Positions 2,948-40,805 of a stretch of DNA of 64,000 bases are shown in pieces. Position 1 is the stretch's first letter, and every line of letters starts with the position of its first letter. Source of the stretch: an uncultured bacterium (GTDB lineage Bacteria > Cyanobacteriota > Vampirovibrionia > Gastranaerophilales > Gastranaerophilaceae); the NCBI GenBank assembly GCA_948433295.1, contig CAOJDT010000001.1, positions 1,869 through 65,868 on the forward strand, read 5' to 3'. Position numbers and translations under genes: made by a program. Below the pieces are notes generated by a model that was given only the letters and a program-made list of their open reading frames with translations, did not search any database and had not been told where the DNA came from.

Positions 2948-3790
2948 TTATAACTTATACGGATAGTCATCCTTAAACTCCCACCCGTCTAATTTCAAAA
3001 GTTGTCCGCAAAAAGATTTACTACCGTATTTACAGAACCTCAAGACATTATCCCGATTTTTAAAATTTCTTGTTACAGGAGTTTCACCCTCTGGCAACCT
3101 GTCATTAATATTAGTGATTGTATCCCATTCAAGCCACGTAAAAGGTTCAAAAGTACCGCGTCCCATTAGAAAATGATATTTATCAATTGCTTCTTTGTTA
3201 GGACCTTTATCTCCGTTAATATCCAAAAACACATCTATAACAACCCCACCTTTATACATTTGTAAACGGGTACCTTCAGAAAAATATACATTATAATAGA
3301 TTCCACTCTTTTTTGTCTTTACAATATTTTTAAAATAAGGTGCATAATATGTATTCCAAAAGACTTCAACATTATCTGCACCTCCGCTCGGAAGTACCCA
3401 ATCAGCGTTAGTAGTATTATTTTCTGCATTATACATCAATGCTGCTTGTGCCATTAAACTGTTAAACTTTTTAAGCCTGGTTGAGTATTCTTGTTTTTTA
3501 TATTTTTGAATCAGCGTCGGCATAGTCATTGCCGCGACAATTCCGATTATGCCAAGGGTTATCAAGACTTCCGCAAGCGTAAACCCGATTTTTCGACTCT
3601 GCCGAACAAACGATTGAGTATCGTTTGTGAGAGGTAGTGGAGCGCAAGCGAAACTCGTATGGTGCCGGTCGGACGTTACTCCGCTGGCACCCCGAATAAA
3701 TCGGGTAAACAGAGTATATCCTGCCACAAACCCTTGCCCTGAGAGGAATCTAGTTTGCCCCCCCCCCCGTTTTTTCAAGTATAGCAACAT
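2948..3790 (-). CDS. Prepilin-type N-terminal cleavage/methylation domain protein (pseudopilin paralog 1)
   Basis: KIG|FTLAEVLITLGIIGIVAAMTMPTLIQKY class III signal. The C-terminal LDINGDKGPN...DGWEFKDDYPY is shared with paralogs at 6586 and 17921. The start is uncertain. ATG 3790 is in frame. The SD-proximal ATG 3797 is in a different frame across the G11 tract. Confidence 0.8.
   Translation of the reverse strand: MLLYLKKRGGGQTRFLSGQGFVAGYTLFTRFIRGASGVTSDRHHTSFACAPLPLTNDTQSFVRQSRKIGFTLAEVLITLGIIGIVAAMTMPTLIQKYKKQEYSTRLKKFNSLMAQAALMYNAENNTTNADWVLPSGGADNVEVFWNTYYAPYFKNIVKTKKSGIYYNVYFSEGTRLQMYKGGVVIDVFLDINGDKGPNKEAIDKYHFLMGRGTFEPFTWLEWDTITNINDRLPEGETPVTRNFKNRDNVLRFCKYGSKSFCGQLLKLDGWEFKDDYPYKL
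3758..3768 (-). repeat. Homopolymeric G11 tract (C11 on + strand) at the 5' end of pseudopilin 1
   Basis: Counted directly as 11 consecutive C on the + strand. It begins 29 nt after the A of the SD-proximal ATG (3797). Confidence 0.95.
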
Positions 3791-3882
3791 TTTTCATAGT
3801 TTCCTCCAATTCGTCCAATTAAACTTTACTGCGGTTCATCCGCTTATGCAATAATTATATACTATTTTTTAATGGTTTTCAA

Positions 3883-4257: not shown

Positions 4258-5165
4258 TTTTGCCTGCTTTCAAAATAATTCAGAACCTTTGTAACCTTTT
4301 CATCGGGTTCTATTTGCAACTCTATTATCTCATCAGAAAACGGTTTTGTAAACCTCAAAAAGTAGGACTGCAAAACCTGCTCTTGTGTCGTAACCTTACC
4401 CTTGCCGGCACCGTAAAGAGTATCATTATAGACAGGATGTTTCAGATGACTTGTATGAACTCTGATTTGATGGGTTCTTCCCGTAATAAGAGTAAGTTCC
4501 ACATAGGTAGCTTCATTATAACGTTTGAGAACTTTCAATAGGGTTGCACTTTCTTTTCCGTCTTCTCTTACGGTCATTTTGTGAGGCTGATTCGGATTTC
4601 TGCCGATGGGAAGCTCAATTCTATCTTCGTCTTTCGGATAATTACCTTTCAAAACAGCCCTGTATTTTTTTGTAACCAGGTGATTTTTAATTTGTTGTGC
4701 AAGAAACTCATGCGCGGCGTTGTTTTTTGCAATCATCAACAAACCCGAAGTATTCCTGTCTAATCTATGAAGTATCCCCCTTCGAAACTCGCCGTTTATA
4801 TCAGAAAGATTTTCGCCAAACTTATACAAAAGAGCGTTCACAAGCGTATTTTCAAGTTCTAGAGATGTAGGGTGGGTAAGCATTCCCGAAGGTTTATTCA
4901 CGACAAGCATATTCTCGTCTTCATAAACAATTTCAAGCGGAATATTTTGAGGCTCAATTTTTAATTCCCTGATATCCGGAAGATTAATCTCAATTTTATC
5001 ACCCTCCCTGATTTGATACGAAGACTTTTTTACAGAAGAATTGACAAACACACATCCGTCTTTTATAAACGATTGGATTTTCGAGCGTGAATAATCCGAC
5101 AAAATTCCGTTCAGAAAATTGTCAAGACGCTGAGATTCATCATTTTCATCCGCAAATAATATCAT
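4254..5165 (-). CDS. rluD: RluA-family 23S rRNA pseudouridine synthase (RluD-like)
   Basis: N-terminal S4-like domain, catalytic HRLDRNTSGLLMIAK motif and TGRTHQIRVH motif. Overlaps the neighbouring stop by 4 nt. Confidence 0.85.
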   Translation of the reverse strand: MILFADENDESQRLDNFLNGILSDYSRSKIQSFIKDGCVFVNSSVKKSSYQIREGDKIEINLPDIRELKIEPQNIPLEIVYEDENMLVVNKPSGMLTHPTSLELENTLVNALLYKFGENLSDINGEFRRGILHRLDRNTSGLLMIAKNNAAHEFLAQQIKNHLVTKKYRAVLKGNYPKDEDRIELPIGRNPNQPHKMTVREDGKESATLLKVLKRYNEATYVELTLITGRTHQIRVHTSHLKHPVYNDTLYGAGKGKVTTQEQVLQSYFLRFTKPFSDEIIELQIEPDEKVTKVLNYFESRQK

Positions 5166-6585: not shown

Positions 6586-7536
6586 TTACTTACAAGTTTT
6601 CTTTCCGTCCCAAGCAAGGTCATTACAGTGAAGATATTCCATATTCTCATTATAAATAACCCACGCGGCACATCCATAACCGTCACCCCCGTTAATACAA
6701 TCCTTATCAAAGGTACGTTCATTAGCGTTCACATTTTGGCTACCTAGTGGACGAATTTTATCTCTATAAATGTTAAAATAAAAAACATCTTTTCCTACCG
6801 TGTTAGGTAAAGCCTGAGGTCCGTTAATATCAATCGAAAAATCACCACAAGCAGATTGTATACAATTAATATTAGATATCCATCCTCCCATCAAAACGCT
6901 TCCATCTTTCAATTTTATAAAAGAGGAGCTCCTTTTATTTCTATTTGTACCGTTTAAAAAATATTGCCCCGAAATACTGCACTTTCCAGCGGTGTCGTCA
7001 ATACATACAGAAGTAGTGCTCATAAAAGGAGTTAATTTTGACCAAAATATTTCAAAATTCTTGTACGCATCAGCAGAAAGCCCTTGCTCATCCGTATCGT
7101 CGAATGAGGAATTCTTATCAAATCCCCAGTAATTAATATCGCCGTATTCGTTACGTGCCATCAAGTATGCTTGACTTACTGTGCTATAAGCTTTTTTTAG
7201 TTTTGTTACCGTAACTTTTTCCTGATGTTTTTGAATCAGCGTCGGCATAGTCATTGCCGCTACTATTCCGATTATACCGAGAGTGATTAAGACTTCGGCT
7301 AAAGTAAAGGCGGCTTTTGCATTGTCATTCTGAAACGTAGACTGTTCTGTCCTACATGAATTGTTACCGTTCAGAATCTCCGTTTCATTCTCGTTTGCGT
7401 TTTTCAATTTCCAAAAGACATTAGTCGACAAAAACGCTTTCAAATTTTTCGTGTAGTTTGTAATTATTCGTGCAAAGTGCTTTCTACTTTTTTGTTCCAG
7501 AGTAGTGCTGCGACTCAGTCGCCCCCCCCCCCGCAA
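6586..7536 (-). CDS. Prepilin-type N-terminal cleavage/methylation domain protein (pseudopilin paralog 2)
   Basis: KAA|FTLAEVLITLGIIGIVAAMTMPTLIQKH motif and IDINGPQALPNTVGKDVFYF core. The ORF as tracked begins at TTG 7536. The SD-proximal ATG at 7561 is out of frame across the G11 tract. Confidence 0.8.
   Translation of the reverse strand: MRGGGRLSRSTTLEQKSRKHFARIITNYTKNLKAFLSTNVFWKLKNANENETEILNGNNSCRTEQSTFQNDNAKAAFTLAEVLITLGIIGIVAAMTMPTLIQKHQEKVTVTKLKKAYSTVSQAYLMARNEYGDINYWGFDKNSSFDDTDEQGLSADAYKNFEIFWSKLTPFMSTTSVCIDDTAGKCSISGQYFLNGTNRNKRSSSFIKLKDGSVLMGGWISNINCIQSACGDFSIDINGPQALPNTVGKDVFYFNIYRDKIRPLGSQNVNANERTFDKDCINGGDGYGCAAWVIYNENMEYLHCNDLAWDGKKTCK
7522..7532 (-). repeat. Homopolymeric G11 tract at the 5' end of pseudopilin 2
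   Basis: 11 consecutive C on the + strand. It begins 29 nt after the A of ATG 7561. Confidence 0.95.
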
Positions 7537-7703
7537 ATGCAGTCATATCAAGCTTTTTCATACTCTTTCCTTTCTATTAATATAATAGTATGGCTAAGCC
7601 ACCTCTCAATGATTATAAACTATTTTTCAAATATTTTCAAGACCTCACACAACAAGACCGTTAAAATAACGGTCTTGTGTCGGTTTATTTAATGTATGCC
7701 AAA

Positions 7704-17920: not shown

Positions 17921-18766
17921 TTACCAAGGGTAATCTTTTTTTAACGTCCAACCGTCAATCATTATTACAGCACCGCAGTATCCGCCTGTACCGGTCTCAC
18001 AGGCAAATGAAGGCACATCAATGTTGCTTCCAATACCGGACATTAAAGCTTCACGTGACGGAGCAGGATGACAATCTAAACCTTTCGGGAAAAAACCGAG
18101 TTTTTTAATACATTCCGTAGCAGTTGGTCGTCCTGCATCTCCCCAACTCATAAGAAACGGAAAGATATCTTTACCTATAGTGTTAGGCTTTTTAGGTCCG
18201 TTAATATCTATATAAAACCATCCGCCATTTCCAGTTCTATGAAGCCAATAATAAACAGAATACCCAGAAGATGTTAGAAAAGACATACCTTTAACATTAA
18301 TTGAAGTTTCAGTACCTTTTATTGTATAAATCTTATCTGTCCAACATTCTGAAGAAGATGGAAGGCATTTTTTTACAGTTTTAATATTCGGAAACATATA
18401 ATTTTCACCAAAGTATATGTCTCTTTCATCAGCATCATCAATATTTCTAAAATCCCAAGAATCCAGAGTTCCGTAGGAACTTTCGGAAATCCTGATTGCT
18501 TGATTTATTTCAGAATAAGCTTTTTTTAATTGCGTAAGTGTTTGTTGTTTTTGATATTTAGCAATTAACGACGGCATTGTCATTGCAGCCACTATTCCGA
18601 TTATGCCCAAGGTAATCAATACCTCTGCCAGAGTAAAGGCTTTTTTACGAAATAGGTTACAATGAGTTACGCCCGTAACATCTGATGTTATATTAAATGC
18701 ATTTATATTATGATGTAAAAATTTAAACGGAGAGCTTAAAAGACCTGCCCCCCCCCCCGAAAACAA
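17921..18766 (-). CDS. Prepilin-type N-terminal cleavage/methylation domain protein (pseudopilin paralog 3)
   Basis: KKA|FTLAEVLITLGIIGIVAAMTMPSLIAKY, YIDINGPKKPNTIGKDIFPF and the C-terminal DGWTLKKDYPW. The tracked start is TTG 18766. The SD-proximal ATG 18788 is out of frame across the G11 tract. Confidence 0.8.
   Translation of the reverse strand: MFSGGGAGLLSSPFKFLHHNINAFNITSDVTGVTHCNLFRKKAFTLAEVLITLGIIGIVAAMTMPSLIAKYQKQQTLTQLKKAYSEINQAIRISESSYGTLDSWDFRNIDDADERDIYFGENYMFPNIKTVKKCLPSSSECWTDKIYTIKGTETSINVKGMSFLTSSGYSVYYWLHRTGNGGWFYIDINGPKKPNTIGKDIFPFLMSWGDAGRPTATECIKKLGFFPKGLDCHPAPSREALMSGIGSNIDVPSFACETGTGGYCGAVIMIDGWTLKKDYPW
18748..18758 (-). repeat. Homopolymeric G11 tract at the 5' end of pseudopilin 3
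   Basis: 11 consecutive C on the + strand. It begins 30 nt after the A of ATG 18788. Confidence 0.95.
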
Positions 18767-18874
18767 CTGTGGTTAGTGATTTTGACATGTAACTCTCCTT
18801 TTCATAAATTACAGTATTTATTATAAACTATTTTTCAATAAATTTCAACAATTTTTTCATAGTATAATATATTT

Positions 18875-26599: not shown

Positions 26600-28078
26600 C
26601 TATTCAAAAATTTGCACTATTTTATTATACAATTCTATATTCCCAACTACAACAATTTCTAATTTGTTTATTGCGCGAGTAATTTGCTGAAAAAACATTT
26701 TTAAAGGAGAGTATGGATTATGAGTAATTTTTCTTGCTTTTAATATATCATCTTCATCGTAATAAAAATGGGAATCCAAAACTGTTATTACATTTTCAAA
26801 TTCTTGTCCTATAACTTGATGAGAAGTCCCTATGGTAGAAAAATCATATTTGTGTGCATCGCACAAAGGCGAATAAAAGCCGGTATTTGGAGTATATGAT
26901 ATATAAGAATAATCCTTTTTTGATTGTATATATTGTTTAGCCTCTTGTATGTTATTAAAAAATGTTATGTTAATATTTTGATCTGAAACTTTTATATGGT
27001 GCTTTCTTTTTAAATCTAATAAGACTATGATAAAATTTGCTAGATCCTTATTCGTTCTTATTTTTCCAGTTAATTGAAATTTGGTTACATTAGAAACATC
27101 AATAGCCCACCCCTCGTTATTATTTAGTGTTTGTTTTTTATCCCCACTCATTATAAGTATAGAATTATTTTTTGAAATATTTGATATAATTTCATCAAAT
27201 TGCTTTTTATTATTCATTCGTTGCACTTCATCAATAACAACAATATCTGGAGGAGTATTTTCAAAAATCGCTTTCCAATTCTTTATTGGACAAATATTCC
27301 ATTTAAAATCTTCACATAGGGTAATATGTCCGTTATTTAAGTTCCCTACATGAATAAGAGAAACCTTATGCCCAGTTTTCATATATTTTTTTACTATACT
27401 ATAAGTTAATAATGTTTTACCACTCCCAGCTTCACCCGTAATCAAAAAGTATTTATGACCATTATTAATGCTTTTTTCTATTTTTTTCTCAATCTCTTCC
27501 TGTTCATTAGTTAAAAAATATTCTCCACTGATAAATTCTTGTGTTTTGTTAAATGGTGATATTAAATAATTACTAGGAATAAATATTTTATCGGGGTTAT
27601 CTGTTATTATATTATTTTTTGTTTGTTCTTTTAAAACAGTGATAACTTTTTGAAAATCACATTGTTTAAGTTCATTATTATCATCTAGTTTCCATATAGT
27701 GTTATCTTGTGCAACATATGTATATAAATACATTTGCTTATTTAAAAAATTTAAATAATATTTATTTTTAATAAGTTGGTTTTGAATTTTTTCTGTATGT
27801 TCACTTTTTAACTCTATATTCAGAACACTACTATCACTAAATCGTAATAAATCAAATTCTTTTCCTATTTGAGGAATAGAATAGCCGAAATAAAAGTTAT
27901 TAAAGTTTTCAATTGAAATTTTATATGATTGTGCTTGTAATATAAATTTCTCCAAAGATTCAATATCAACAATTTTAATTTCGTTACCACAAAAATTAAA
28001 ACTCTTATCTTTTATACAATGAGTTAATTTATTGTGTTCGTATATTTCGACGAGACTTTTTAAATTTATTGCTTTCAT
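26600..28078 (-). CDS. PD-(D/E)xK nuclease-like N-domain + DUF2075 P-loop ATPase/helicase-like protein
   Basis: N-terminal EFDLLRF...VLNIELK (D...ExK pattern), Walker A ITGEAGSGKTLLTY, Walker B VVIDEVQRM. Confidence 0.7.
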   Translation of the reverse strand: MKAINLKSLVEIYEHNKLTHCIKDKSFNFCGNEIKIVDIESLEKFILQAQSYKISIENFNNFYFGYSIPQIGKEFDLLRFSDSSVLNIELKSEHTEKIQNQLIKNKYYLNFLNKQMYLYTYVAQDNTIWKLDDNNELKQCDFQKVITVLKEQTKNNIITDNPDKIFIPSNYLISPFNKTQEFISGEYFLTNEQEEIEKKIEKSINNGHKYFLITGEAGSGKTLLTYSIVKKYMKTGHKVSLIHVGNLNNGHITLCEDFKWNICPIKNWKAIFENTPPDIVVIDEVQRMNNKKQFDEIISNISKNNSILIMSGDKKQTLNNNEGWAIDVSNVTKFQLTGKIRTNKDLANFIIVLLDLKRKHHIKVSDQNINITFFNNIQEAKQYIQSKKDYSYISYTPNTGFYSPLCDAHKYDFSTIGTSHQVIGQEFENVITVLDSHFYYDEDDILKARKITHNPYSPLKMFFQQITRAINKLEIVVVGNIELYNKIVQIFE

Positions 28079-28167
28079 ATAGTTATTGTAGCATAAGAAA
28101 TTCCGTTAAATACTGTATTTACATGCTTAATGTTTCTTAATATATTTATTGTAAAATGAGGTGAATT

Positions 28168-29760
28168 ATGACTTTTAATATAAAAGATTTTCAGAATAAA
28201 CTTTGGAAGACCGCTGATGATTTACGTGCAAATTCAAGTTTAAAATATAATGAATTTTCTACTCCGGTATTGGGATTGATATTTTTACGCTTTGCAGATT
28301 ATAGATTTCAAAAAGCTAAACCTGAAATAGAAAAATTAAAAACTTCATCTCGACGAGCTTTTGATGAGAAAAATGCTTATCAAGCACGAGGGATTCTGTT
28401 TGTACCGGAAAAAGCATCTTTTAACTATTTATTAAACTTGCCGGAAAGTGAGAGTATTGCAAAAGCGTTAAATGAGGCAATGTCATTAATTGAAGATGAA
28501 AATCCTATCTTAAAAGGTGTTTTGCCAAAAGGTTATGCGAGGATTCCTGATGATTTGTTAGTTGCTACAATGAAAGTATTTGCTGATGTAGATTTTGATA
28601 GAGAAAATGGGGATGTATTTGGTAAAGTTTACGAATTTTTCTTGGGCAAATTTGCTAGTTCAGAAGGTCAAAAAGGCGGAGAATTCTATACTCCGACTTG
28701 TTTAGTAAAATTGCTTGTTGAAATTATGAAACCATTCCATGGTAATGTATATGACCCAGCCTGCGGTTCAGGTGGTATGTTTGTCCAAACTGCCGAATTT
28801 GCCAAAAGAGAGAATAAAGATGAAGATAAGTCTGTCAACGATTTAATTACGGTAGAAGGACAAGAAAAAACAGAAGAAACAGTCAGATGGTGCAAGATGA
28901 ACCTTGCTGTGCATGGACTTGAAGGTGATGTAAAGCAAGCAAATAGTTTTTATGACGATGTTTTTGATTCGGTTGGGAAATATAATTTCGTACTTGCTAA
29001 TCCTCCATTCAATGTTGATGGTGTAGATAAAGAAAGACTAAAAGGAGATAAAAGATTTCCGTTTGGTTTACCAAAAGCTGATAATGCGAATTATTTATGG
29101 ATACAGATGTTTTACTCAGCATTAAAGACTCCGAAAGATGGCGAAAACGCACGTGCTGGTTTTGTAATGCCAAACTCTGCAAGCGATGCAAGACAAACTG
29201 AACAAGCTATAAGAGAAAAAATTATTAAAGATAACGCAGTTGATGTTATGATATCCGTGGGAAGTAATATGTTTCACAACGTAACCTTACCTTGTACTCT
29301 TTGGTTTTTAGATAAAGGAAAGAAAAATACAGACAGAAAAGATAAGGTTCTTTTTCTTGACGTAAGAGGAATTTATAATCAAATTGATAGAGCACACAGA
29401 GAATTTACTGATGAACAGATAGAATTTATTACAAATATTGTAAAACTTTATCGTGGTGAAAAACCTGATTATAAGTGGGGTAGTAAAAAATTAATATTAG
29501 AAAACTTCCCTAATGAAAAGTATCAAGATGTTAAAGGCTTGTGCAAAGTCGCAACCATTGAAGAAATAGAAAAACAAGGTTGGAGTTTGAATGCCGGTCG
29601 ATATGTCGGGGTGGCAGAAACCGAAGAAGAAAACTATGTTTTTGAAGAAAAACTCCAAGAATTAAATTCTGAACTTGAAAAGTTAAATAAAGAAGCAAAA
29701 GACCTCGAAAACAATATTGCACATAATATTAAAGAATTGTTAAGTCTGGGGGTAAAATGA
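28168..29760 (+). CDS. hsdM: Type I restriction-modification system methyltransferase subunit
   Basis: HsdM N-terminal helical domain, AdoMet motif DPACGSGGM, catalytic NPPF (LANPPFNV). Confidence 0.9.
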   Translation: MTFNIKDFQNKLWKTADDLRANSSLKYNEFSTPVLGLIFLRFADYRFQKAKPEIEKLKTSSRRAFDEKNAYQARGILFVPEKASFNYLLNLPESESIAKALNEAMSLIEDENPILKGVLPKGYARIPDDLLVATMKVFADVDFDRENGDVFGKVYEFFLGKFASSEGQKGGEFYTPTCLVKLLVEIMKPFHGNVYDPACGSGGMFVQTAEFAKRENKDEDKSVNDLITVEGQEKTEETVRWCKMNLAVHGLEGDVKQANSFYDDVFDSVGKYNFVLANPPFNVDGVDKERLKGDKRFPFGLPKADNANYLWIQMFYSALKTPKDGENARAGFVMPNSASDARQTEQAIREKIIKDNAVDVMISVGSNMFHNVTLPCTLWFLDKGKKNTDRKDKVLFLDVRGIYNQIDRAHREFTDEQIEFITNIVKLYRGEKPDYKWGSKKLILENFPNEKYQDVKGLCKVATIEEIEKQGWSLNAGRYVGVAETEEENYVFEEKLQELNSELEKLNKEAKDLENNIAHNIKELLSLGVK

Positions 29761-31016
29761 AATTAAATGATTTTTGTTATATCAATCCAGCAGAACAGTT
29801 GAATCGCAATGAAGAATATGAATTTATAGAAATGGCTGATTTAACTCCAGGAGATAGATACGTTTTTTCAAAACAAAAAAAAATATTTAATGGTAGTTTT
29901 TCTAAATTTTCCAATAAAGACACTTTGATGGCAAAAATTACTCCTTGTCTAGAGAATGGAAAAATATCACAATATATTGGAGAAAATAAAGCTTTTGGTT
30001 CTACGGAATTTAATATTTTTAGAGAAAAAGAAAATGTTTCGAATGCTGATTACTTATATTATTTAGTTAGCTCTACCATTGTAAAGGAACCTGCAATTAA
30101 AAGTATGTCAGGAGCAACTGGTAGACAAAGATCAAATTTAGATGAAATAAAACAAATAAATGTACCTGACTTCAATATAGCAATTCAAGAAAAAATAGCA
30201 AAAATTCTTTCAAATTACGATGATTTGATCGAAAACAACAATAAACGCATTAAGATTTTAGAAGAAATGGCACAAAAAATCTATAAAGAATGGTTTGTTG
30301 ATTTCAAATTCCCAGGACATGATGTTGCGACTTTCAAACAAACTAACCTTGGTATAATTCCAACCGATTGGGATTGTAAACCAATAGGAGAATTACTAAA
30401 ACACAAAATTGGTGGAGGTTGGGGTAATGAAGAAAAAGATCAAAAATATACAGAAAGGGCCTATGTTATTCGTGGAACCGATATTCCATACGGAAGAGAA
30501 GGTAATATTCAGAATTGCCCTTTACGATATCATACGAGTTCTAATATTAAAACTCGTTTATTACAAACTAATGATATTGTATTTGAAGTATCTGGGGGCA
30601 GTAAAGGACAACCTGTCGGAAGAGCATTGTTATTAAATAAAAATTTATTTAATCAATTTAAAGATAATGTTATTTGTGCAAGTTTTTGTAAGTTATTAAG
30701 AACTGATGTCGAACAAATCGTGCCAGAGTTATTATATTTACACCTGTTAAATATTTACAATAATGGAGAAATAGAAAAATATCAAACACAATCAACCGGT
30801 ATAATTAACTTTAAATTTACATTCTTTTTAGAAAGCGAGCAAATACTTGTGCCAAGTACCGATATTCAGGAATTATTCAAAAAAATAGCTGTACTTATTT
30901 TTGATGAAATATCATTGTTGGGTTATAAAAATCAAACTCTAAAGCAAACCCGTGATCTTCTTTTGCCACGCTTGATCTCCGATGAAATTAATGTTGAAAA
31001 TATGGAGATTTCGTAA
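29757..31016 (+). CDS. hsdS: Type I R-M specificity subunit
   Basis: Two target-recognition domains are separated by the conserved helical spacer (LIENNNKRIKILEEMAQKIYKEWF), with a C-terminal LLPRLISDE. It has a 4-nt ATGA overlap with hsdM. Confidence 0.85.
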   Translation: MKLNDFCYINPAEQLNRNEEYEFIEMADLTPGDRYVFSKQKKIFNGSFSKFSNKDTLMAKITPCLENGKISQYIGENKAFGSTEFNIFREKENVSNADYLYYLVSSTIVKEPAIKSMSGATGRQRSNLDEIKQINVPDFNIAIQEKIAKILSNYDDLIENNNKRIKILEEMAQKIYKEWFVDFKFPGHDVATFKQTNLGIIPTDWDCKPIGELLKHKIGGGWGNEEKDQKYTERAYVIRGTDIPYGREGNIQNCPLRYHTSSNIKTRLLQTNDIVFEVSGGSKGQPVGRALLLNKNLFNQFKDNVICASFCKLLRTDVEQIVPELLYLHLLNIYNNGEIEKYQTQSTGIINFKFTFFLESEQILVPSTDIQELFKKIAVLIFDEISLLGYKNQTLKQTRDLLLPRLISDEINVENMEIS

Positions 31017-31053
31017 TTTATAAATATTTTATGTTTTGTTTATAATATAAAAC

Positions 31054-31869
31054 ATGGCAAGAAAAAATATTTTTGAAATTATAGAAGAAAAATATGATCT
31101 AAAAGAAGAAATTGGCAAAATTGATTTCTTGTTTAATAATGCTCTTCTAATCATTCATAATAATTTAACTTTCCAACAGGAGCAAGGAAATGTTGAAGCT
31201 GTTGTACAGAACATGTTGTTTTTTAATTGGAAACAGCGTGGTTCGTCTTTAAATTGTGAAGAAGTTCGCAGAAAATTAGATATTGATTTAAATAAGTTCG
31301 AAAATGAAGATATTATAGTTCGCTTAGAATATTATTTAAACATTATTAGTCTGGTAAATACTAAATTAATGTATCCAAATTGTCAAAAGACTCAACAATT
31401 CGTTATGCTGGAAAAGAATATTGAAATTTTACTAGATCATTTAAATTACGAATATCTAGATATTAAAGAAGAGGAAAAAATTCTTTTAGTTCCTAAAAAT
31501 CCAGCTGCAACTTCAGTTGCAGAAATATCAACGAAAGATACTGCTATAGCAATATTAATGTACAATCATTCCTCATTAAAAGGTAATTTAAGTCAAAAAC
31601 AGAGTTTGTTGTTAAAAATATACATAGAGTATGAAAAATTGCTTAAAAAACCAATTGATGGATTTTCAGAATTTTTTGATAAAACTAAAGGTTTAATAAA
31701 TAAATTAAATATCAAGCACGACAATAAAAAAGAAATTTCAGATATAGATAATATTCAATTGGAAGAATGGTATGATGAATTATATCAACTACTATTATTT
31801 TGCGTTTTAATAAAAGATAATATTGAACGAAAAAATAAAGCAGGAAATTTTTTAAAAAGTTTAAAGTGA
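31054..31869 (+). CDS. Hypothetical protein embedded in the type I R-M operon (271 aa)
   Basis: Clean ORF 38 nt after hsdS, helical and Lys/Glu-rich. No recognisable motif. Confidence 0.5.
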   Translation: MARKNIFEIIEEKYDLKEEIGKIDFLFNNALLIIHNNLTFQQEQGNVEAVVQNMLFFNWKQRGSSLNCEEVRRKLDIDLNKFENEDIIVRLEYYLNIISLVNTKLMYPNCQKTQQFVMLEKNIEILLDHLNYEYLDIKEEEKILLVPKNPAATSVAEISTKDTAIAILMYNHSSLKGNLSQKQSLLLKIYIEYEKLLKKPIDGFSEFFDKTKGLINKLNIKHDNKKEISDIDNIQLEEWYDELYQLLLFCVLIKDNIERKNKAGNFLKSLK

Positions 31870-31910
31870 TTCACCTAATTTAACAAAACAGATGAAAACA
31901 TAAGCTTGCC

Positions 31911-32016
31911 TTGTATGTAAAAATAATGATAAAATTACACGCAAAGCAATTTGTGTTACTTTAGTTACTTACAAATTTGATTGTATGTAAAAATATTCAT
32001 AAAATTGCATGCAAAT
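31911..32016 (+). repeat. Two ~36-bp imperfect direct repeats with 70-bp spacing upstream of fic
   Basis: ttgtatgtaaaaataatgataaaattacacgcaaag (31911) versus ttgtatgtaaaaatattcataaaattgcatgcaaat (31981), about 31/36 identical. Confidence 0.8.
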
Positions 32017-32033
32017 TATATTCATGGTATAAT
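32005..32033 (+). promoter_or_regulatory. Putative sigma70-type promoter for fic-hsdR
   Basis: TTGCAT (32005-32010), 17 nt, then TGgTATAAT (extended -10, TATAAT at 32028-32033). An AGGAGA RBS and ATG 32053 follow. Confidence 0.55.
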
Positions 32034-32052
32034 TGTTTTAATAGGAGACAGT

Positions 32053-33162
32053 ATGACATATACACCTTCAAAACCTAATAAAATAGCTGATATTGAGATC
32101 GATTTTAGGCAATTTATATCTCTTATAGGTAAATCCCATTCGGCATTGTCTAATTATAATGGAGCATTGAGTCATTTAGTCAATCCTCAAATTCTTTTGG
32201 CACCAATGACGACAAAAGAATCAGCAATGTCATCTAAAATAGAGGGAACGCAGGCTACATTTACAGAAGTTTTGCAACATGATGCAGGAGAAAATTTTAA
32301 TACATATAAAAGCCAAGAGATTCAAGAAGTGCTTAATTATCGTTCAGCAATGACTTATGCTACAGAGTTATTGCAAGAAAGGCCTTTTATTCACTTGAAT
32401 ATGATTAGAGATATACACAAGGTTTTATTAAGTGGAGTAAGGGGTGAAAATAAAGCCAGAGGAGAATTTAGAAAAATTCAAAATTGGATAGGTCCTAAAA
32501 ATTCAACAATAGAAACCGCTTCTTTTGTTCCTCCTGCACCTAATGAAATTATTGATTATCTTGATGAATGGGAAAAATTTATTAATTCTGATTTTGAAGA
32601 TTTACTTGTGCAATTAGCGATTGTACATGCTCAATTTGAAATTATTCACCCCTTTCTAGATGGTAATGGAAGATTAGGCAGACTTTTAATTCCTATATTT
32701 TTGTATTCAAAAGAGTATCTTGCCCAGCCAATATTCTATTTAAGTGAATATTTTGAAACTCACAGAGAAGAATATTATACCCATTTAAGAAATATAACAG
32801 TAGAAAATAATTGGCAAGATTGGATTAAATTCTTTTTAAATGCAATTGTGGAACAATCAAAAATTAACACAGCTAAAATTAATCAAATATTAGAGCTTTC
32901 ACATAATATGAAAATTATTATACAAGAAACAACGAAATCTCAATATACAGCTAATATACTTGATACTATTTTTTCAAAACCAATTTTTTCAACAACAACA
33001 TTTTCAAAATTTGCAAATATTCCTAACAGGAAAACCGCAATTTCTATTTTGCAAAAACTTACAGAAAAAAATGTTATTCAATTAACAAGAGAAGCAAGTG
33101 GAAATAGAAGTAATTTGTATACATTCCAAAATTTGCTTGATATTATTGACGGAGACAACTAA
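32053..33162 (+). CDS. fic: Fic-family protein (AMPylase-type) with C-terminal wHTH
   Basis: Canonical Fic motif HPFLDGNGRLGRLL. The start is taken at ATG 32053 after AGGAGA, not the tracked TTG 31981. The stop overlaps the hsdR start (TAATG). Confidence 0.85.
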   Translation: MTYTPSKPNKIADIEIDFRQFISLIGKSHSALSNYNGALSHLVNPQILLAPMTTKESAMSSKIEGTQATFTEVLQHDAGENFNTYKSQEIQEVLNYRSAMTYATELLQERPFIHLNMIRDIHKVLLSGVRGENKARGEFRKIQNWIGPKNSTIETASFVPPAPNEIIDYLDEWEKFINSDFEDLLVQLAIVHAQFEIIHPFLDGNGRLGRLLIPIFLYSKEYLAQPIFYLSEYFETHREEYYTHLRNITVENNWQDWIKFFLNAIVEQSKINTAKINQILELSHNMKIIIQETTKSQYTANILDTIFSKPIFSTTTFSKFANIPNRKTAISILQKLTEKNVIQLTREASGNRSNLYTFQNLLDIIDGDN

Positions 33163-36100
33163 TGCATAAACTATCAGAAGAAGCATTTGAATTTGATTTG
33201 ATGACTGAGTGTGAACAAAAACTCGGATATAATCTTTTTGATGCCTCGTCTGAAATTATTGGAGGCGAAAATTCTACATTTGGTCGACAAACAACAGATG
33301 AAGTAATTCTTTCCAAAAATCTTCGCACTGCTCTTAAACGATTAAACCCAGAATTACCACAAGAAGCTTTAGATAATGCTTATTATGAATTAACGCAAGA
33401 TTTATCAACAAAGACTGCAATTGGTGCAAATAAGTACGTTTATTCTTTGTTAAAAGATGGTGTAAAAGTTCAATTTAAAGATAATAATGGAATAGATACA
33501 ACAGACATTGTTAAAGTCATTGATTTCCAAGAACCTCGCAATAATGAATATTTGCTTATTAGACAGTTTAAAATATCAGGTGAAAGGTATAACTGTAGAG
33601 CTGATTTAATATTATTCGTTAATGGTTTACCTTTAGTATTTATCGAATTAAAAGCAACTCATAAACATATTGAAAATGCCTTTAATGATAATATTACACA
33701 CTATAAAAAAGAAATTCCTCAAGTGTTTTGGTACAATGCATTTATTATAGTATCAAACGGAACGGATGCAAAATTCGGTACAATAACATCTAAATGGGAG
33801 CATTTTTCTGATTGGAAAAAGATTGACAACAATGACTCTAAGGGGATTATTTCAGCAGATACTTTAATGAAAGGTATGTGCAAGCCTGAAAATTTGTTAG
33901 ATATTATAGAAAATTACACCCTTTATCAAGAAGTTAAAGGTGGAATGATTAAAATCTGTGGAAAAAATCATCAGTTTTTAGGTGTTAATGCTGCTATAGA
34001 AAATTTTAAAATAAATACAGATGGAAAACTTGGTGTTTTTTGGCATACACAAGGCAGTGGAAAAAGTTTTTCAATGATATTTTTTGTTCAAAAAATACTT
34101 AGAAAGATTAAAGGCAATTGGACTTTTGTTGTTGTTACAGATAGATGCGATTTAGACGAACAAATTTATAAAAACTTTGTTTCAACAGGAGCAATTACAG
34201 AACAAAATGTTCAAGCTACAAGTAGAGAACATTTAAAACAGTTATTAAAAGAAGATCATAGAACAATTTTTACAATGATTCAAAAATTTGGCACAGAAAA
34301 AAAAGGACAAAATTTTGAACAGATTTCTGATAGAAATAACATTATTGTAATAACTGATGAGGCACACCGTACACAATATGGCACCTTAGCAATGAATATG
34401 AGAGAAGCTCTCCCAAATGCTAAATTTATTGCTTTTACCGGCACACCTTTAATGAAAGATGATGAAAAAACAAAGCTTGTGTTTGGTGATTATGTAAGTA
34501 AGTACACATTTAAACAGTCAATAGAAGATACTGCAACTGTTCCTTTGTATTACGAAGCCAGAATACCTGAAATGCAGATAATAAATGAAGATTTAGAAAA
34601 ACAGCTTCAAGATATTATTGATTCTGCTGATTTTTCAGAAGAACAAGAAGAAGAATTTGAAAAAGAATATGTAAATATGTATCAAGTAATTACAAGAGAA
34701 GACAGGCTTGATGCAATAGCAAAAGATGTAGTTGAACATTTTATAAATCGTGGTTTTATGGGTAAAGCAATGTATGTTGCAATAGATAAAGCTACTACAA
34801 TAAAAATGTATAATAAAGTTAAAGTTGAATGGGATAAATATATTAAAGTTCTTGAAAACAAACTAACAACAGCCAACGAAGATAATAAAGAAGTTTTGCA
34901 AAATCAAATTGATTACATGAAAGAAACTGATATGGCGGTCGTTGTTTCTTCTTCTCAAAATGAAGATGAACAAATGAAACAAAAAGGGGTTGATATTACA
35001 CCACACAGAACAAGAATGAAAAAAGAAGATTTAGCCACTAAATTTAAGGATAAAGAAGATAAATTAAGATTGGTTTTTGTTTGTGCAATGTGGGTTACCG
35101 GTTTTGACTGCCCAACTATTTCAACCCTTTATCTTGATAAAATTTTAAAAGAACATACACTAATGCAAACGATTTTAAGAGCAAATAGAGTTGCATTAGG
35201 TAATTACAATGGTTTAATTGTTGATTATATTGGCATATTTAAGGCATTACAAAAAGCATTAGCAATATATGGTGAACCTGCTGATGGAAGTGATTCAGAA
35301 GAAGAACCAGCGGAAACAAAAGCTGAATTGATTAAGCTTTTAGATTCAGAAGCTACAAAAATGAAAGATTTTCTTAATTCAAAAAATATTGATGTTGATA
35401 CAATATTTGATACAAGAGCTTTAGAATGTATAAAAAGAACAGAGGAAGCTGTTAATACAATATTAGAAACAGAAAAGGGCAAAACGGAGTTTCTAAAAGG
35501 AACGCAAAATCTAAAAGCATTATTTAAAGCAATTTTGCCTGATAGTGAAGCAAGAAGATTTGCAAAACTGGTTTTTGTTTGTTCAATTCTTTGTGCAAAA
35601 ATAAGAGAGGTTACAATTAAATCTATTGATAATACGGAAATCAAACAACTTGCTCAAAAAGTAGAAGAGCTGCTCAATGAATCAATAAATCTTAGATCTT
35701 ATGAAATAAAAGCCGGGGAAAAACTTGATTTAAGTAAAATAGATTTTGAAGAATTGCAACGAAGAATTTTAAAAGAAAAACAACGAGCATTGTTAGAAAA
35801 GCTTAAATCAACAATTAGTTCTAAACTTTCAATGATGTTAAAAATTAACGATATGAGAAAACATTTTCAAGAAAAATTTGAGCAGATTATTGATGAATAT
35901 AATGCAGGAAAGCTAACAATGGAGCAAATGTATGTTCAGTTAGTAGCCTTAACAAATGATTTAACTGCAGAAGAAAAACGCCATCTCGGTGAAAATTTAA
36001 CAGAAGAAGAACTCGCAATTCTTGATATTTTAACTAAACCTGAACCAAAACTTTCAAAAAAAGAATTTGAAACAGTAAAAGCTGCTGCGCAAAGGCTGGT

Positions 36101-36311
36101 AAAAGTTATAAAAAAAGAAAAATTAGTTTTGAATTGGCGTAAGAAACAATCTACAAGAGCAAAAGTTAAAGAAGCAATTGAAACAATTTGTGATGAAACG
36201 TTGCCTGAAATATATAATAAAGATTTATTTCAAGAAAAATGTAACCACATATATGACCATTTTTATGATTGTTATAATAATAGCAATGATAACATATACA
36301 ATGTAGCATAG
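33162..36311 (+). CDS. hsdR: Type I restriction endonuclease subunit R
   Basis: 1049 aa. N-terminal HsdR_N nuclease region (DLILFVNGLPLVFIELK), helicase motif I (HTQGSGKS), DEAH-like VITDEAHRTQ, C-terminal helical domain. Confidence 0.9.
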   Translation: MHKLSEEAFEFDLMTECEQKLGYNLFDASSEIIGGENSTFGRQTTDEVILSKNLRTALKRLNPELPQEALDNAYYELTQDLSTKTAIGANKYVYSLLKDGVKVQFKDNNGIDTTDIVKVIDFQEPRNNEYLLIRQFKISGERYNCRADLILFVNGLPLVFIELKATHKHIENAFNDNITHYKKEIPQVFWYNAFIIVSNGTDAKFGTITSKWEHFSDWKKIDNNDSKGIISADTLMKGMCKPENLLDIIENYTLYQEVKGGMIKICGKNHQFLGVNAAIENFKINTDGKLGVFWHTQGSGKSFSMIFFVQKILRKIKGNWTFVVVTDRCDLDEQIYKNFVSTGAITEQNVQATSREHLKQLLKEDHRTIFTMIQKFGTEKKGQNFEQISDRNNIIVITDEAHRTQYGTLAMNMREALPNAKFIAFTGTPLMKDDEKTKLVFGDYVSKYTFKQSIEDTATVPLYYEARIPEMQIINEDLEKQLQDIIDSADFSEEQEEEFEKEYVNMYQVITREDRLDAIAKDVVEHFINRGFMGKAMYVAIDKATTIKMYNKVKVEWDKYIKVLENKLTTANEDNKEVLQNQIDYMKETDMAVVVSSSQNEDEQMKQKGVDITPHRTRMKKEDLATKFKDKEDKLRLVFVCAMWVTGFDCPTISTLYLDKILKEHTLMQTILRANRVALGNYNGLIVDYIGIFKALQKALAIYGEPADGSDSEEEPAETKAELIKLLDSEATKMKDFLNSKNIDVDTIFDTRALECIKRTEEAVNTILETEKGKTEFLKGTQNLKALFKAILPDSEARRFAKLVFVCSILCAKIREVTIKSIDNTEIKQLAQKVEELLNESINLRSYEIKAGEKLDLSKIDFEELQRRILKEKQRALLEKLKSTISSKLSMMLKINDMRKHFQEKFEQIIDEYNAGKLTMEQMYVQLVALTNDLTAEEKRHLGENLTEEELAILDILTKPEPKLSKKEFETVKAAAQRLVKVIKKEKLVLNWRKKQSTRAKVKEAIETICDETLPEIYNKDLFQEKCNHIYDHFYDCYNNSNDNIYNVA

Positions 36312-36714: not shown

Positions 36715-37125
36715 TTAAAAATCAAAATCCCATTTTTCGTCATCATTGAAGAAATCTTCTTCGGTATCTTGTTTTTTGATGGCAATATTGAGTAATTCTT
36801 CTAAAGTCAGTTTTTTAGTTTTTGGCTTAACCATTTCTTCAGTTATGTTTAGAAATTTATTCAGTCTTGAAACATCAATTTGCTGATTATTTGCCAAATC
36901 CTCGTTAAAATCATCAAGCATTTGGCGAACTAATTGATACATATCGTAATTAGTCAATGTTTGTTTCTTTAAAAATTCTTTTCGTTTTTCACCCCAATTA
37001 CCTTCTGCTTTCCATCGACGAACAGTCCTATCACTTACCCCAAGTCGTTTTGCGACTCCGACTTCGGTTATAAACTGCTCAACGTACATTTTTTCTGCTT
37101 TATCAAAATATTTATTTTTCTTCAT
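36715..37125 (-). CDS. YjcR/terminase-small-like HTH protein (136 aa)
   Basis: N-terminal HTH VGVAKRLGVSDRTVRRWKAEGNWGEKR, resembling phage terminase small-subunit/YjcR-type HTH. 4-nt overlap with the upstream transposase gene. Confidence 0.5.
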   Translation of the reverse strand: MKKNKYFDKAEKMYVEQFITEVGVAKRLGVSDRTVRRWKAEGNWGEKRKEFLKKQTLTNYDMYQLVRQMLDDFNEDLANNQQIDVSRLNKFLNITEEMVKPKTKKLTLEELLNIAIKKQDTEEDFFNDDEKWDFDF

Positions 37126-39077
37126 AAAGCCTTCGCACTCATTGCTTCCATTTCAATTCGCTCTTTTTCCAAAATTTTATCAGTTTCAAACAAATACAAT
37201 TTTTCTTCCTGTTTATTATCTTCTAAAAATACAGATAAATCCTGTCTGCCAAATGCTTCCATCTCTTTGTTTTTCTGAATAGCTTTATCCATATTAGTAT
37301 TGGCAATTTTTGAAACTTTAATACTCTTTTTATAATCTTTATTGCTGGAATTGTAAGCTGCTTTATAGTTTTCATATTGTTCTTCAAGTGGAATTTCACG
37401 AGTTTGTTTGATGTAAGACTTTGTAATTTTCAGATTTCGTTTCTTTATTGATAATGCTTCTTTAAACTCCTCTTTTGAAACTTTATCTGCGTGTAATGCC
37501 ACAACCGCTTTAACTGCTTTAACTGTTCCGACAAACTCATCATTATCTGCCTTAAAAGCCCACGCTTCTTTGTAATCCTGAACATCCCGACGAAGATATA
37601 CTTTCAAACCTGTTCTTGTAATCATCCAGTCTGCCCAGTAAGTAATATTGAGTTGCCTGTCTTGAATACCGTTTCGCCCAATTGTAAAATTACGAGAAGT
37701 CCTCATACAAAATAGTTTCAACGCATCACGTGACGGTGTGATTTTTTCGGTGTATTCATTGTAAAACAATTCGTCAGGACAAATTCCGTTTAGATTTTTA
37801 CCGTTTGAAGGCTTTTTATTTAAAACATTCAGGATAAAATTATCAAATATTTTCTTAAAATCTTCAAATTGCATAATTTTACCGGCTTTAATTTCGTTTG
37901 CCAGTTTTTCAGGACGTTCGACGACATTTCCACCACGATAACCCACGCAATGTTTTGAGAGCAATTCTTTAATCTTTAGAAAATCCCTTTCTACCGGTTT
38001 TGTTTGAGCATTATATGGAAGTGCAAAATGTACATTAACATTCAATTCCTTTAACATTGCAGAAGTTTGACCTTTGCTGATATCAACCTTAAAATTTGAC
38101 CTGCCGCCCGCAAAATCCTTTGAGCGGTAATCTTTCCCGTTGTCAATAATCACATCTTTTGGCAAACCAAATTTTTGTGCTGCATAATAAAAAGACTGAA
38201 ATATAAAATCCGAATTAGGATTTTTTGTTTGCAAAACCCAACCGAGCCATTTACCGGATTTGTAATCTCGCCAAACCGTAACCCAAGGGAAAACGACTTT
38301 TCCATCTGAGTCAAAACAAGCAACATCAATCTGTGCATGATCTGATACCCAAACTTCATTGCAAGTTATATTTGAGTAATCTCTATCTATATACCCGCCA
38401 TATCTTCTATTCCAAGCAGATTGACCATATCGTGCCAAATAAATACCCTGTTTAGGAATCTCTTTATCAAGTCTGCGTTTGAAAGCCATAAAGCTCGGAA
38501 AAGTTTCTCTATCTGCATTAAATTCTCTTATTGCATAACCTAAAGTCAAATCCCAACAAGTTCTTAGAGAGGGTGCACTCTCAATCAGATATAAATTTTT
38601 AAAATATTCAAAATAATCATCTTGGACGGAACTTCCTCTTAAATGCTGCCCGTGACGTGATAACAACCCGTTTAAACCATACCTGAAATATCTTCTTCGC
38701 ATTTTTATAACTGACGAATAAGAGGTTGGTTCATTTGATTCGTTCCATTCTTCAATAAATTGCTTTAAATCGTTACCTTTTAACCCGTCAGAGTTTTCCA
38801 GTATTTCTAAATACTTTTCAGCCTGTTGTTTCGCCCAATTTGGGGCTTCCGAGTATTTAATATCCGAAAAACTTACTCCGAAATATTTATCTTGAACAAA
38901 ATCAGGAAGAGATTTTAACAGAATAAAATAATTTGCACACTTTCCTTTTTTTACAATTTTAAAGACAAATTTACCAACTCGACATTGTTTTTTAAGGGTT
39001 TGTTCACTCAAACCAATAATGCCTGCCGCGGTTTTAATATCTATCCATATATTTGTTTTGTCTTTTTTCTGTTTCAT
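37122..39077 (-). CDS. Mu-type (rve-fold) DDE transposase, 651 aa
   Basis: N-terminal Mu-like wHTH (IKTAAGIIGLSEQTLKKQCR). DDE triad context: VWVSDHAQIDV, VIIDNGKDYRS, YNAQTKPVERDF. Confidence 0.8.
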   Translation of the reverse strand: MKQKKDKTNIWIDIKTAAGIIGLSEQTLKKQCRVGKFVFKIVKKGKCANYFILLKSLPDFVQDKYFGVSFSDIKYSEAPNWAKQQAEKYLEILENSDGLKGNDLKQFIEEWNESNEPTSYSSVIKMRRRYFRYGLNGLLSRHGQHLRGSSVQDDYFEYFKNLYLIESAPSLRTCWDLTLGYAIREFNADRETFPSFMAFKRRLDKEIPKQGIYLARYGQSAWNRRYGGYIDRDYSNITCNEVWVSDHAQIDVACFDSDGKVVFPWVTVWRDYKSGKWLGWVLQTKNPNSDFIFQSFYYAAQKFGLPKDVIIDNGKDYRSKDFAGGRSNFKVDISKGQTSAMLKELNVNVHFALPYNAQTKPVERDFLKIKELLSKHCVGYRGGNVVERPEKLANEIKAGKIMQFEDFKKIFDNFILNVLNKKPSNGKNLNGICPDELFYNEYTEKITPSRDALKLFCMRTSRNFTIGRNGIQDRQLNITYWADWMITRTGLKVYLRRDVQDYKEAWAFKADNDEFVGTVKAVKAVVALHADKVSKEEFKEALSIKKRNLKITKSYIKQTREIPLEEQYENYKAAYNSSNKDYKKSIKVSKIANTNMDKAIQKNKEMEAFGRQDLSVFLEDNKQEEKLYLFETDKILEKERIEMEAMSAKAL

Positions 39078-39087
39078 AAATACTTTA

Positions 39088-39105
39088 AGTTTAAATTGCT
39101 TGTAA
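39088..39105 (+). repeat. Partial third copy of the island junction sequence
   Basis: agtttaAATTGCTTGTAA versus the left junction agtttgtcAATTGCTTGTAA (26508-26527). There is a 12-nt exact match at 39094-39105 = 26516-27. Confidence 0.7.
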
Positions 39106-40802: not shown

Positions 40803-40805
40803 GAG

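Follow-up and report, generated by a model that had tools for sequence, protein, structure and literature searches.

Out-of-frame G and C tracts in a type IV pilin-like gene family of Gastranaerophilales: a probable case of slipped-strand phase variation

A 64 kb stretch of DNA (hereafter the window; 34.5% GC) from an uncultured gut bacterium of the Gastranaerophilales (Melainabacteria) contains three genes coding for type IV pilin-like proteins, each of which is separated from its translation start by a run of eleven G residues (G11) that puts the two out of frame. Slipped-strand phase variation at the DNA level, turning translation ON or OFF in a large family of which most members are OFF, is probably the best explanation of this arrangement. 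The Gastranaerophilales are uncultured, non-photosynthetic relatives of the cyanobacteria living in human and animal guts, and to our knowledge almost nothing is known of their interactions with host, phages and other microbes. In the searchable literature we found no phase variation described for Melainabacteria or Gastranaerophilales, and nothing relevant on DUF6613, a domain found in most of the relatives of the proteins studied here.

Results

Three G11 tracts separate a start codon from a pilin-like gene

The G11 tracts lie on the minus strand at 3758-3768, 7522-7532 and 18748-18758 (C11 on the plus strand), and are the sole G or C homopolymers of at least 6 nt in the whole 64 kb. Matches to nine consecutive G occupy nine overlapping positions in the window, as against 0.03 expected from shuffled sequences. 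The three loci share one layout on the minus strand, namely a promoter-like site TTGAAA-17-TATAAT, a Shine-Dalgarno (SD) sequence (GGAGG, GGAAAGAG or GGAGAG) 5-6 nt upstream of an ATG (3797, 7561 and 18788), a coding stretch of 29-30 nt (9-10 codons), the tract, and a stop codon in the frame of the ATG. At G11 this stop is TAG 3752-3750 at locus 1, TAG 7486-7484 at locus 2 and TAA 18725-18723 at locus 3, that is 5, 35 and 22 nt past the tract, and the pilin-like open reading frames (ORFs) are in the +1 frame relative to the SD-preceded ATGs. The elements of the three loci are as follows, a slash within a motif marking the cleavage point.

Upstream of all three loci, minus strand: block TTGAAAAATAGT(A/T)TATAAT or a close variant, read from the sequence
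3854..3882, minus strand: locus 1, promoter-like site TTGAAA-17-TATAAT, matching the consensus at 11/12 positions
3803..3807, minus strand: locus 1, SD sequence GGAGG, 5 nt before ATG 3797
3750..3797, minus strand: locus 1, short 0-frame ORF at G11, with the predicted OFF product MKNVAILEKTGGGAN followed by the stop, read from the sequence
3758..3768, minus strand: locus 1, G11 homopolymer, the putative switch (11 or 12 in other samples)
2948..3790, minus strand: locus 1, pilin-like ORF with open leader and mature protein, cleavage motif G/FTLAEV (G at 3586-3584)
Residues 66-89 of the translation of that ORF, minus strand: locus 1, N_methyl motif; homologs carry PF07963 and PF20318 (DUF6613)
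3581..3733, minus strand: locus 1, leader insert of 147 nt, in frame and structured, flanked by GGGTTT direct repeats
7612..7640, minus strand: locus 2, promoter-like site TTGAAA-17-TATAAT, matching the consensus at 11/12 positions
7484..7561, minus strand: locus 2, SD-proximal ATG (7561) and short 0-frame ORF at G11, stop 35 nt past the tract
7522..7532, minus strand: locus 2, G11 homopolymer (11 in three samples)
6586..7536, minus strand: locus 2, pilin-like ORF, cleavage motif A/FTLAEV (A at 7311-7309)
18820..18848, minus strand: locus 3, promoter-like site TTGAAA-17-TATAAT, read from the sequence
18723..18788, minus strand: locus 3, SD-proximal ATG (18788) and short 0-frame ORF at G11, stop 22 nt past the tract
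18748..18758, minus strand: locus 3, G11 homopolymer (11, 12 and 13 in other samples)
17921..18766, minus strand: locus 3, pilin-like ORF, cleavage motif A/FTLAEV (A at 18640-18638)

Fusion of the ATG to the pilin ORF requires G10 or G13, while G11 and G12 lead to an early stop. A preliminary description of this DNA had reported a G11 tract 29 nt past an SD-proximal ATG and out of frame with the pilin ORF, and this was seen at all three loci. It had also stated that translation from ATG 3797 ends soon after the tract, in agreement with the TAG located 5 nt past it, and that the pilin frame needs 10 or 13 G at each locus, which is borne out by the computed frames and by a G13 allele fused in contig L087. 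Locus 1 is not strictly start-less at G11, because a second ATG (3790) is then in the pilin frame, 12 nt from GGAGG; at loci 2 and 3 the sole candidate start in the same frame is a TTG with no SD.

The proteins carry a prepilin motif deep inside the open reading frame

The N_methyl prepilin motif (PF07963) is above cutoff in the three proteins of the window, and lies deep inside the ORF in the context (G or A)/FTLAEVLITLGIIGIVAAMTMP. TIGR02532 (NCBIfam) matches the proteins of loci 1 and 3 and reaches its curated cutoff at locus 1 only, while sub-threshold matches to the N-terminal part of pseudopilins and pilins (NCBIfam) occur in all three. The PDB profile matches to type IV pilins are restricted to the N-terminal helix. 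The AlphaFold2 model of the mature locus 1 protein (2951-3586), with a predicted local distance difference test score of 93, opens with an N-terminal helix of 53 residues, after which come a beta-sheet and C-terminal helices. Comparison of this model with the PDB by Foldseek gave no match at E<0.9, and the DUF6613 head of locus 1 has no PDB sequence match past the N-terminal helix. In the ON state the predicted leaders would measure about 49, 71 and 83 aa at loci 3, 1 and 2, exceeding the usual short basic leader of about 5-30 aa.

More than 7,500 relatives are present in public data, most of them with PF20318 (DUF6613) and without an informative name, and a scan of GTDB representative genomes locates the family in Gastranaerophilales/Melainabacteria of human and animal guts. 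An exact-protein look-up of the 280-aa ORF of locus 1 returned no record. The type of C-terminal head differs among tract-bearing genes, as illustrated by the end of locus 2, ...DYLHCNDLAWDGKKTCK, versus ...DGWEFKDDYPYKL.

Tracts are a family-wide feature and nearly always out of frame

The family was surveyed in the window and in 79 representative-genome loci (L003-L081; about 1.30 Mb in all with L001-L002), by retaining genes with a pilin frame traceable to an upstream stop and with at least 120 open codons after the motif (n=142). A G or C run of 8-12 nt lies within the open leader of 63 of these 142 pilin-like genes (~45%), and of the 87 G/C runs measuring at least 8 nt in the sampled loci, 63 belong to the family. 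On the coding strand the run is made of G in 42 genes and of C in 21, and since G runs encode glycine and C runs proline, it would be the homopolymer and not the peptide that is conserved or selected.

A strong SD and an ATG are found upstream of the tract in 61 of the 63 genes, about 20-30 nt away (69-84 nt in a few). Where gene and tract belong together, the open pilin frame starts 2-129 nt ahead of the tract, and the ATG frame closes 0-79 nt after it, mostly within 20 nt. The pilin frame is then open through to the FTLAEV motif, over up to 460 nt, while each of the other two usually closes in under 70 nt. Such a crossover of frames at the tract means that productive translation would begin at the SD-ATG and shift frame there.

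Among the 61 tract-bearing genes with an SD-ATG, 3 are in frame with it, 45 need one nucleotide more (+1) and 13 need one less (-1), the three genes of the window belonging to the latter. In-frame genes are strongly depleted (3/61, binomial test versus 1/3, p=9e-8). A flaw in start-finding is ruled out because the tract-less paralogs with a callable start all have it in frame (78/78), mostly as an SD-preceded ATG; their leader has a median length of 7 aa, for example MKKG/FTLAEV.

In the poly-C form of the tract (Pro codons), the run stands about 22 nt past the SD-ATG and is mostly a C10 needing 11 (L008 9961-9970, L023 9911-9920, L044 9871-9880 and 18 others); the flanks on the G strand read C-G(n)-C at most loci, with a T after the run in a minority. 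Two other ideas about the tract were considered and rejected. Inversion of the tract region (G-strand tracts upstream of plus-strand genes) does not apply, these being ordinary genes with coding-strand poly-C and their own SD-ATG. As to poly-G mimicking an SD for a downstream start, no pilin-frame start is found 5-10 nt past the tract, and C-type loci could not work in this way.

Tract length is polymorphic in DNA and includes ON alleles

Alleles of the same locus were retrieved via exact-protein look-ups of neighbouring genes, and their flanks are identical between assemblies.

Locus 3: G11 in the window, G11 in SRR14253255, G12 in ERZ14864661, G12 in SRR15604537, G13 in ERZ15043455, G13 in SRR29466476
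Locus 1: G11 in the window, G11 in ERZ14864034, G11 in ERZ15043444, G12 in ERZ14864640
Locus 2: G11 in 3/3 samples, invariant

Comparison of tract lengths in related samples, proposed in the preliminary description, thus reveals differences at loci 1 (11, 12) and 3 (11, 12, 13), including the in-frame G13. This is an ON length at locus 3, and in L087 a gene caller gives a 289-aa protein starting at the SD-ATG. In a second species, four contigs carry G10 (OFF, truncated form) and one carries G11 (ON) between identical flanks, the ON contig encoding the full fusion MKELLRNINRGGGHSQ.... Both forms also coexist within clusters of the family defined at 90% identity.

Cluster P0038: ON forms on 5 contigs, OFF forms on 32 contigs
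Cluster P0099: ON forms on 3 contigs, OFF forms on 17 contigs
Cluster P0007: ON forms on 5 contigs, OFF forms on 27 contigs

From these counts the ON forms represent about 10-15% of contigs. Moreover, two paralogs on one contig (L033, 9919-9927 and 12074-12083) have 76-nt leaders that are 100% identical, with C9 in one and C10 in the other, and this pair is a one-base tract change within one genome. The claim of slipped-strand phase variation of a pilin-like family is therefore upheld by the N_methyl motif in three proteins out of three, by the tract in 63 of 142 paralogs and by length alleles with identical flanks. That the three loci of the window have the same length had been presented as an oddity; it ceases to be one, 11 being the modal length in the species of the window, which carries the mode at its three loci, and other samples of the strain group being mixed, with 11 and 13 within ERZ15043455 and 11 and 12 within ERZ14864661.

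Several contigs are interrupted in the vicinity of the tract. Contig L096 (ERZ14864661 NODE_1149) terminates at the tract in a 47-nt poly-C run, an Illumina artefact of the dark-cycle or 'G's end' type; among contigs L083-L086, L090 and L094 several end in the promoter region just before the tract; and many Logan contigs break at the N-terminal coding stretch common to paralogs. Look-ups of the 3'-side neighbours yielded one extra tract observation, most contigs breaking within the pilin gene, probably at the N-terminal stretch shared by paralogs.

Long leaders built as repeat mosaics

Between tract and cleavage site lie 36 codons at locus 3, 57 at locus 1 and 70 at locus 2, with no conservation of this stretch from locus to locus. 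A 147-nt in-frame segment of locus 1 (3581-3733, bounded by GGGTTT) is missing from the ortholog-like L002, which is otherwise identical to locus 1 from the SD to CTCTCAGGG and has a predicted leader of normal size, about 22 aa. This insert folds at -50 kcal/mol (z -3.39), sits at an older cleavage motif (GQG/F; counterpart in L002 at 5040-5070), and contains a hairpin, CACAAACGATACTCAATCGTTTGT, that recurs in leaders of other genomes (L023 12306-12349, L079 1035-1076). Its appearance is that of a small mobile or recombining palindromic element. A search of Rfam with 3540-3860 gave nothing at E<=1 and left the insert without a match; a riboswitch or known RNA between tract and cleavage site was discarded, Rfam giving just two tRNAs in the window at gathering threshold.

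More generally, the leaders of the family are mosaics of palindromic repeat modules common to paralogs and species, all of them free of stop codons (for instance L017, L037, L048, L052, L078 and L081, and proteins P0025, P0038, P0063 and P0081). The modules include VIPNLFRDL..RCEEAKRHRC, PSLIREG..HV, degenerate AFTLAEGATHV repeats, HCEERSDEAI and SLRANAKQSR. They resemble translated palindromic intergenic repeats, yet are open over up to ~170 codons. As the leader is predicted to be removed, it seems to tolerate nearly any insertion that keeps the frame and adds no stop.

The 5' cassette of locus 1, comprising the SD, the ATG, the first codons, the tract and the next ~20 nt, is identical in the window (3750-3812) and in L002 (4985-5055), while the mature proteins are 56% identical and the contexts differ (murG/ftsW versus ytxH). 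Since the cassette is identical and the mature parts and contexts are not, this suggests that 5' modules are exchanged or converted between paralogs.

A predicted SD hairpin at locus 1 is not general

The preliminary description had further placed the tract in the loop of a hairpin involving the SD. At locus 1, GAGGAA (3806-3801) is indeed complementary to TTCCTC (3748-3743), and the two are paired in the minimum free energy fold (z -2.45); the generality of the hairpin does not stand, as the folds of locus 2 (z -0.55) and locus 3 (z -0.03) are no more stable than those of shuffled sequences. In L082 a natural variant, TTACTC, breaks the stem with no compensating change. Elsewhere, GCTCCT-like sequences that could pair with the SD occur after the tract in a subset of G-type loci. 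Over the 61 loci, the pairing energy between SD and post-tract sequence is -6.3 kcal/mol versus -5.3 kcal/mol for shuffles (p=0.07), pairing with the own post-tract sequence is no different from that with other genes' post-tract sequence, and it is absent in C-type loci. Significant at locus 1 only, broken in L082 and not significant over the 61 loci, the hairpin was rejected as a shared regulatory element; it is unproven and is kept outside the core mechanism.

Other features of the window and of the sampled loci

The three pilin-like genes of the window are scattered singletons amid housekeeping genes, and their neighbours include murT-like, ytxH, lspA and rluD-like genes, the gene of a GHL6 protein, a permease gene and glf. 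A defence-type island at 26600-36311 comprises a Schlafen-like helicase and the Type I restriction-modification genes hsdM, hsdS and hsdR, with a Fic-domain protein between hsdS and hsdR. At 37122-43019, Mu/Tn7-like transposition genes, coding for two Mu-transposase-domain proteins and a TniB-like AAA protein, adjoin a tRNA gene (43530-43616), and this region is probably a Tn7-like element inserted at the tRNA.

Some long tracts of the sampled loci stand elsewhere. A G10 in L010 (5696-5705) is in frame within a large ORF (>500 aa) with Gly/Asn/Thr-rich repeats, surface- or autotransporter-like, which may be another phase-variable gene class. Tracts of G10-G12 without a nearby FTLAEV occur in L022 (5992-6002 and 19109-19119, in the recurring context ...CATGAATACTGAGTTTTGC-G11), L047 (2212-2221), L059 (8043-8052) and L056 (9768-9779 and 13502-13513). 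Those of L056 have an SD-ATG, one of them with a long open frame behind it; those of L047 and L059 have no SD or ATG just upstream.

Discussion

A proposed translational switch in the leader

We propose that a sigma-70-type promoter and a strong SD with its ATG would start translation of a short N-terminal peptide, and that the ribosome would reach the G homopolymer nine to ten codons later. With a length of 10 or 13 (1 mod 3), reading would run on into the long open leader, the (G or A)/FTLAEV prepilin site and the mature type IV pilin-like protein. With a length of 11 or 12, it would meet a stop 2-12 codons past the tract, and the pilin ORF, which has no ribosome-binding site of its own, would not be made; a possible exception is locus 1, where G11 puts a second, poorly spaced ATG in frame. 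Slipped-strand mispairing at DNA replication would often lengthen or shorten the tract by one or two bases, and because of this frequent slippage a minority of cells with any given paralog ON would always be present. The default genomic state would be OFF, with most paralogs off in most cells. As the tract sits in the part coding for the leader, which is predicted to be cleaved off, changes of its length would switch synthesis without altering the mature protein. Switching would accordingly be expected to be rapid and reversible, the leader to be removed by a prepilin peptidase and the protein to be displayed at the cell surface, and the selective reason may be bet-hedging towards immunity, phages or niches.

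Several observations weigh against this mechanism. A single configuration, a run of ten needing 11, makes up 38 of the 63 genes (G10 in 22, C10 in 16), in many species and on both strands. In-frame forms amount to about 5% in representative genomes and about 10-15% of contigs within clusters, versus 33% for a neutral three-state switch. Neither a prepilin peptidase nor pilus machinery turned up in a Pfam scan of 20 window ORFs or in the precomputed Pfam annotations of the pilin neighbours, about 20 of the 45 window ORFs of at least 180 aa being outside that scan. Lastly, all lengths come from short-read assemblies, many of 3-7x coverage, and individual tract lengths carry some error for this reason, one assembly having a poly-C artefact at the tract. 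The low ON share, the dominance of runs of ten and the lengths shared by all sampled loci of some genomes could reflect a mutational attractor length, combined with selection that keeps the ON probability low where a family has many members. An in-frame product supplied by RNA polymerase slippage or ribosomal frameshifting would fit these three features equally.

Alternative explanations

Expression by recoding at the RNA level is the alternative that survives best, and we consider it unlikely. A constitutive low level of protein would then arise from slippage of the RNA polymerase or frameshifting of the ribosome at the run, and the DNA variation would be a side effect. Homopolymers of at least 9 nt are slippage sites for bacterial RNA polymerase, and runs of 9-12 nt are about as long as the RNA:DNA hybrid. 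It would account for 58 of 61 loci being out of frame in the assembled consensus, 45 of them needing +1, with G10 and C10 dominating on both strands, for the 0-frame stop a few codons past the tract, mostly within 20 nt, and for the same length and offset at all sampled loci within several genomes, as seen on the contigs of BRZ_ER bin64, BRZ_LG bin75 and BRZ_AG bin75. Against it, the direction of the shift is not fixed (+1 at 45 loci versus -1 at 13, among them the three of the window), tract length varies within species, and in-frame DNA alleles occur that differ from OFF alleles in tract length only. No conserved stimulatory RNA structure was found either, from pairing over the 61 loci or from folding of the window loci. 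Obligate RNA slippage or +1 programmed ribosomal frameshifting, raised in the preliminary description, still fits the regularity of the OFF register, and is not needed. There is a small chance that the family is deliberately built one base out of frame, most commonly as a run of ten needing 11, and is normally expressed by slippage at the RNA level. On that doubtful supposition, changes of DNA length would reset the efficiency of slippage and would not act as a plain on/off switch, dozens of genes per genome being expressed at a low, tunable level. If true, such use of programmed G/C-run slippage by an entire gene family would be new.

A sequencing or assembly artefact, by which genes truly in frame would appear shifted owing to miscalled homopolymers in short reads, is very improbable. 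Poly-G is troublesome for Illumina, one contig enters a 47-nt poly-C at the tract, several others end just before it, and one added base would repair 45 of the 61 loci. A study of pilus genes in Bifidobacterium breve has described a 'G's end' Illumina artefact and database lengths at odds with deep sequencing (PMC9187656). In the same study, the correct length was recovered from synthetic G11/C11 templates in ~94-97% of read families (PMC9187656), so the consensus should hold, and consensus lengths, above all those differing by 2 nt, can be argued to be real. The correction needed here is not uniform (+1 for 45 loci, -1 for 13), alleles of 11 and 13 at one locus come from independent assemblies produced by two pipelines, and in-frame and out-of-frame forms coexist within species clusters. 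A true in-frame state should moreover appear in most assemblies, and it is seen in only 5%. The systematic homopolymer miscall mentioned in the preliminary description is thus disfavoured, since ON as well as OFF forms occur and alleles can differ by as much as 2 nt.

It is just as improbable that the short ORF at the SD-ATG is an independent upstream ORF or leader peptide, and that the pilin is translated separately, through reinitiation or SD sequestration, with no fusion at the tract. The short ORF does end within a few codons of the tract, and CTCCT-type sequences complementary to the SD follow the tract at some G-type loci, locus 1 folding in this manner. The pilin frame, though, has no SD-bearing start after the tract and yet is open over up to 460 nt to the cleavage site; the region from tract to cleavage site is expected to be translated, because this frame is kept open while the other frames close fast. 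ON alleles fuse the two ORFs precisely. Pairing of SD and post-tract sequence, besides its p=0.07 against shuffles, is no better than with the post-tract sequence of other genes, C-type loci have no complementary sequence, and the L082 variant disrupts the stem of locus 1.

That the tract-bearing copies are decaying pseudogenes, as their nearly general frameshift relative to the start codon might suggest, is the least credible possibility of all, since all 63 are open over ~204-350 codons, the normal length in the family (the survey required at least 120 open codons past the motif), the frameshift is always exactly at the homopolymer, in-frame alleles exist and the arrangement is conserved across an order.

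Comparison with known systems

The closest documented case that we found appears to be the pilus G-tract of B. breve UCC2003, where in bbr_0113 and bbr_1889 a tract of G10-12 splits the signal-peptide ORF from the body ORF of a sortase-dependent pilin gene, the reference genome being out of frame and ON lengths being enriched in the mouse gut (PMC9187656). Both organisms are gut commensals, and in both the tract, located in B. breve in the first pilin gene, stands between an ORF for a secretion signal and a body ORF lacking a separate start; both have an OFF reference with minority ON alleles, and in Bifidobacterium equivalent tracts recur across the genus. The B. breve protein is a sortase/LPXTG pilin with a Sec signal, whereas the protein studied here is type IV pilin-like and has a class III (prepilin) leader. 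B. breve has one or two such loci per genome, as opposed to seemingly dozens in Gastranaerophilales, which in addition use both G and C runs and have long repeat-mosaic leaders.

The textbook analogues are those of Neisseria, in which PilC has a poly-G in the region coding for the signal peptide, and Opa has CTCTT repeats in the region coding for the leader. Opa proteins form a multigene family with the majority of copies out of frame at any given moment. The major pilin varies by gene conversion and not through a tract, and PilC is a tip adhesin. As in the genes described here, the repeat lies in the region of a cleaved leader, so that the mature protein is unchanged by its length; the differences are the phylum, the pentamer of Opa in place of a homopolymer, and PilC not being a pilin-like subunit.

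The poly-G genes of Campylobacter and Helicobacter belong to AT-rich genomes where G/C runs of about 8-12 nt occur almost exclusively in phase-variable genes, with lengths clustered around a mode. These tracts are found in many unrelated families (glycosyltransferases, restriction-modification, flagellar genes) and are ON in a large fraction of genomes. The AT-rich genome, the concentration of G/C tracts in switch genes and the modal lengths are shared with Gastranaerophilales, in which, unlike in those bacteria, one family and one gene position account for 63 of 87 long tracts, ~95% of them OFF.

Programmed transcriptional slippage, as in Shigella mxiE, Thermus dnaX and insertion sequence elements, mostly uses A/T runs, with a fixed direction and a fixed genomic length. 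It has in common with the present case a homopolymer as long as the RNA:DNA hybrid and an out-of-frame genome, there by design and conserved across relatives; it differs in that direction and length vary here and in-frame DNA alleles exist.

Significance

The mechanism is of a well-known kind, and the novelty lies in the setting, an uncultured phylum and a type IV pilin-like family, in the scale, in an OFF state that is nearly universal, and in the use of G as well as C runs. Gene callers systematically mis-annotate the tract genes, as truncated proteins, with false internal starts, or as repeat-built 'long-leader' proteins, and tract lengths in metagenome-assembled genomes are to be read as population modes and not as fixed sequence. 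For the Gastranaerophilales themselves, the slipped-strand mechanism that we favour points to a lottery-type variation of the cell surface, comparable to that of Opa in Neisseria or of the pilus G-tracts in Bifidobacterium.

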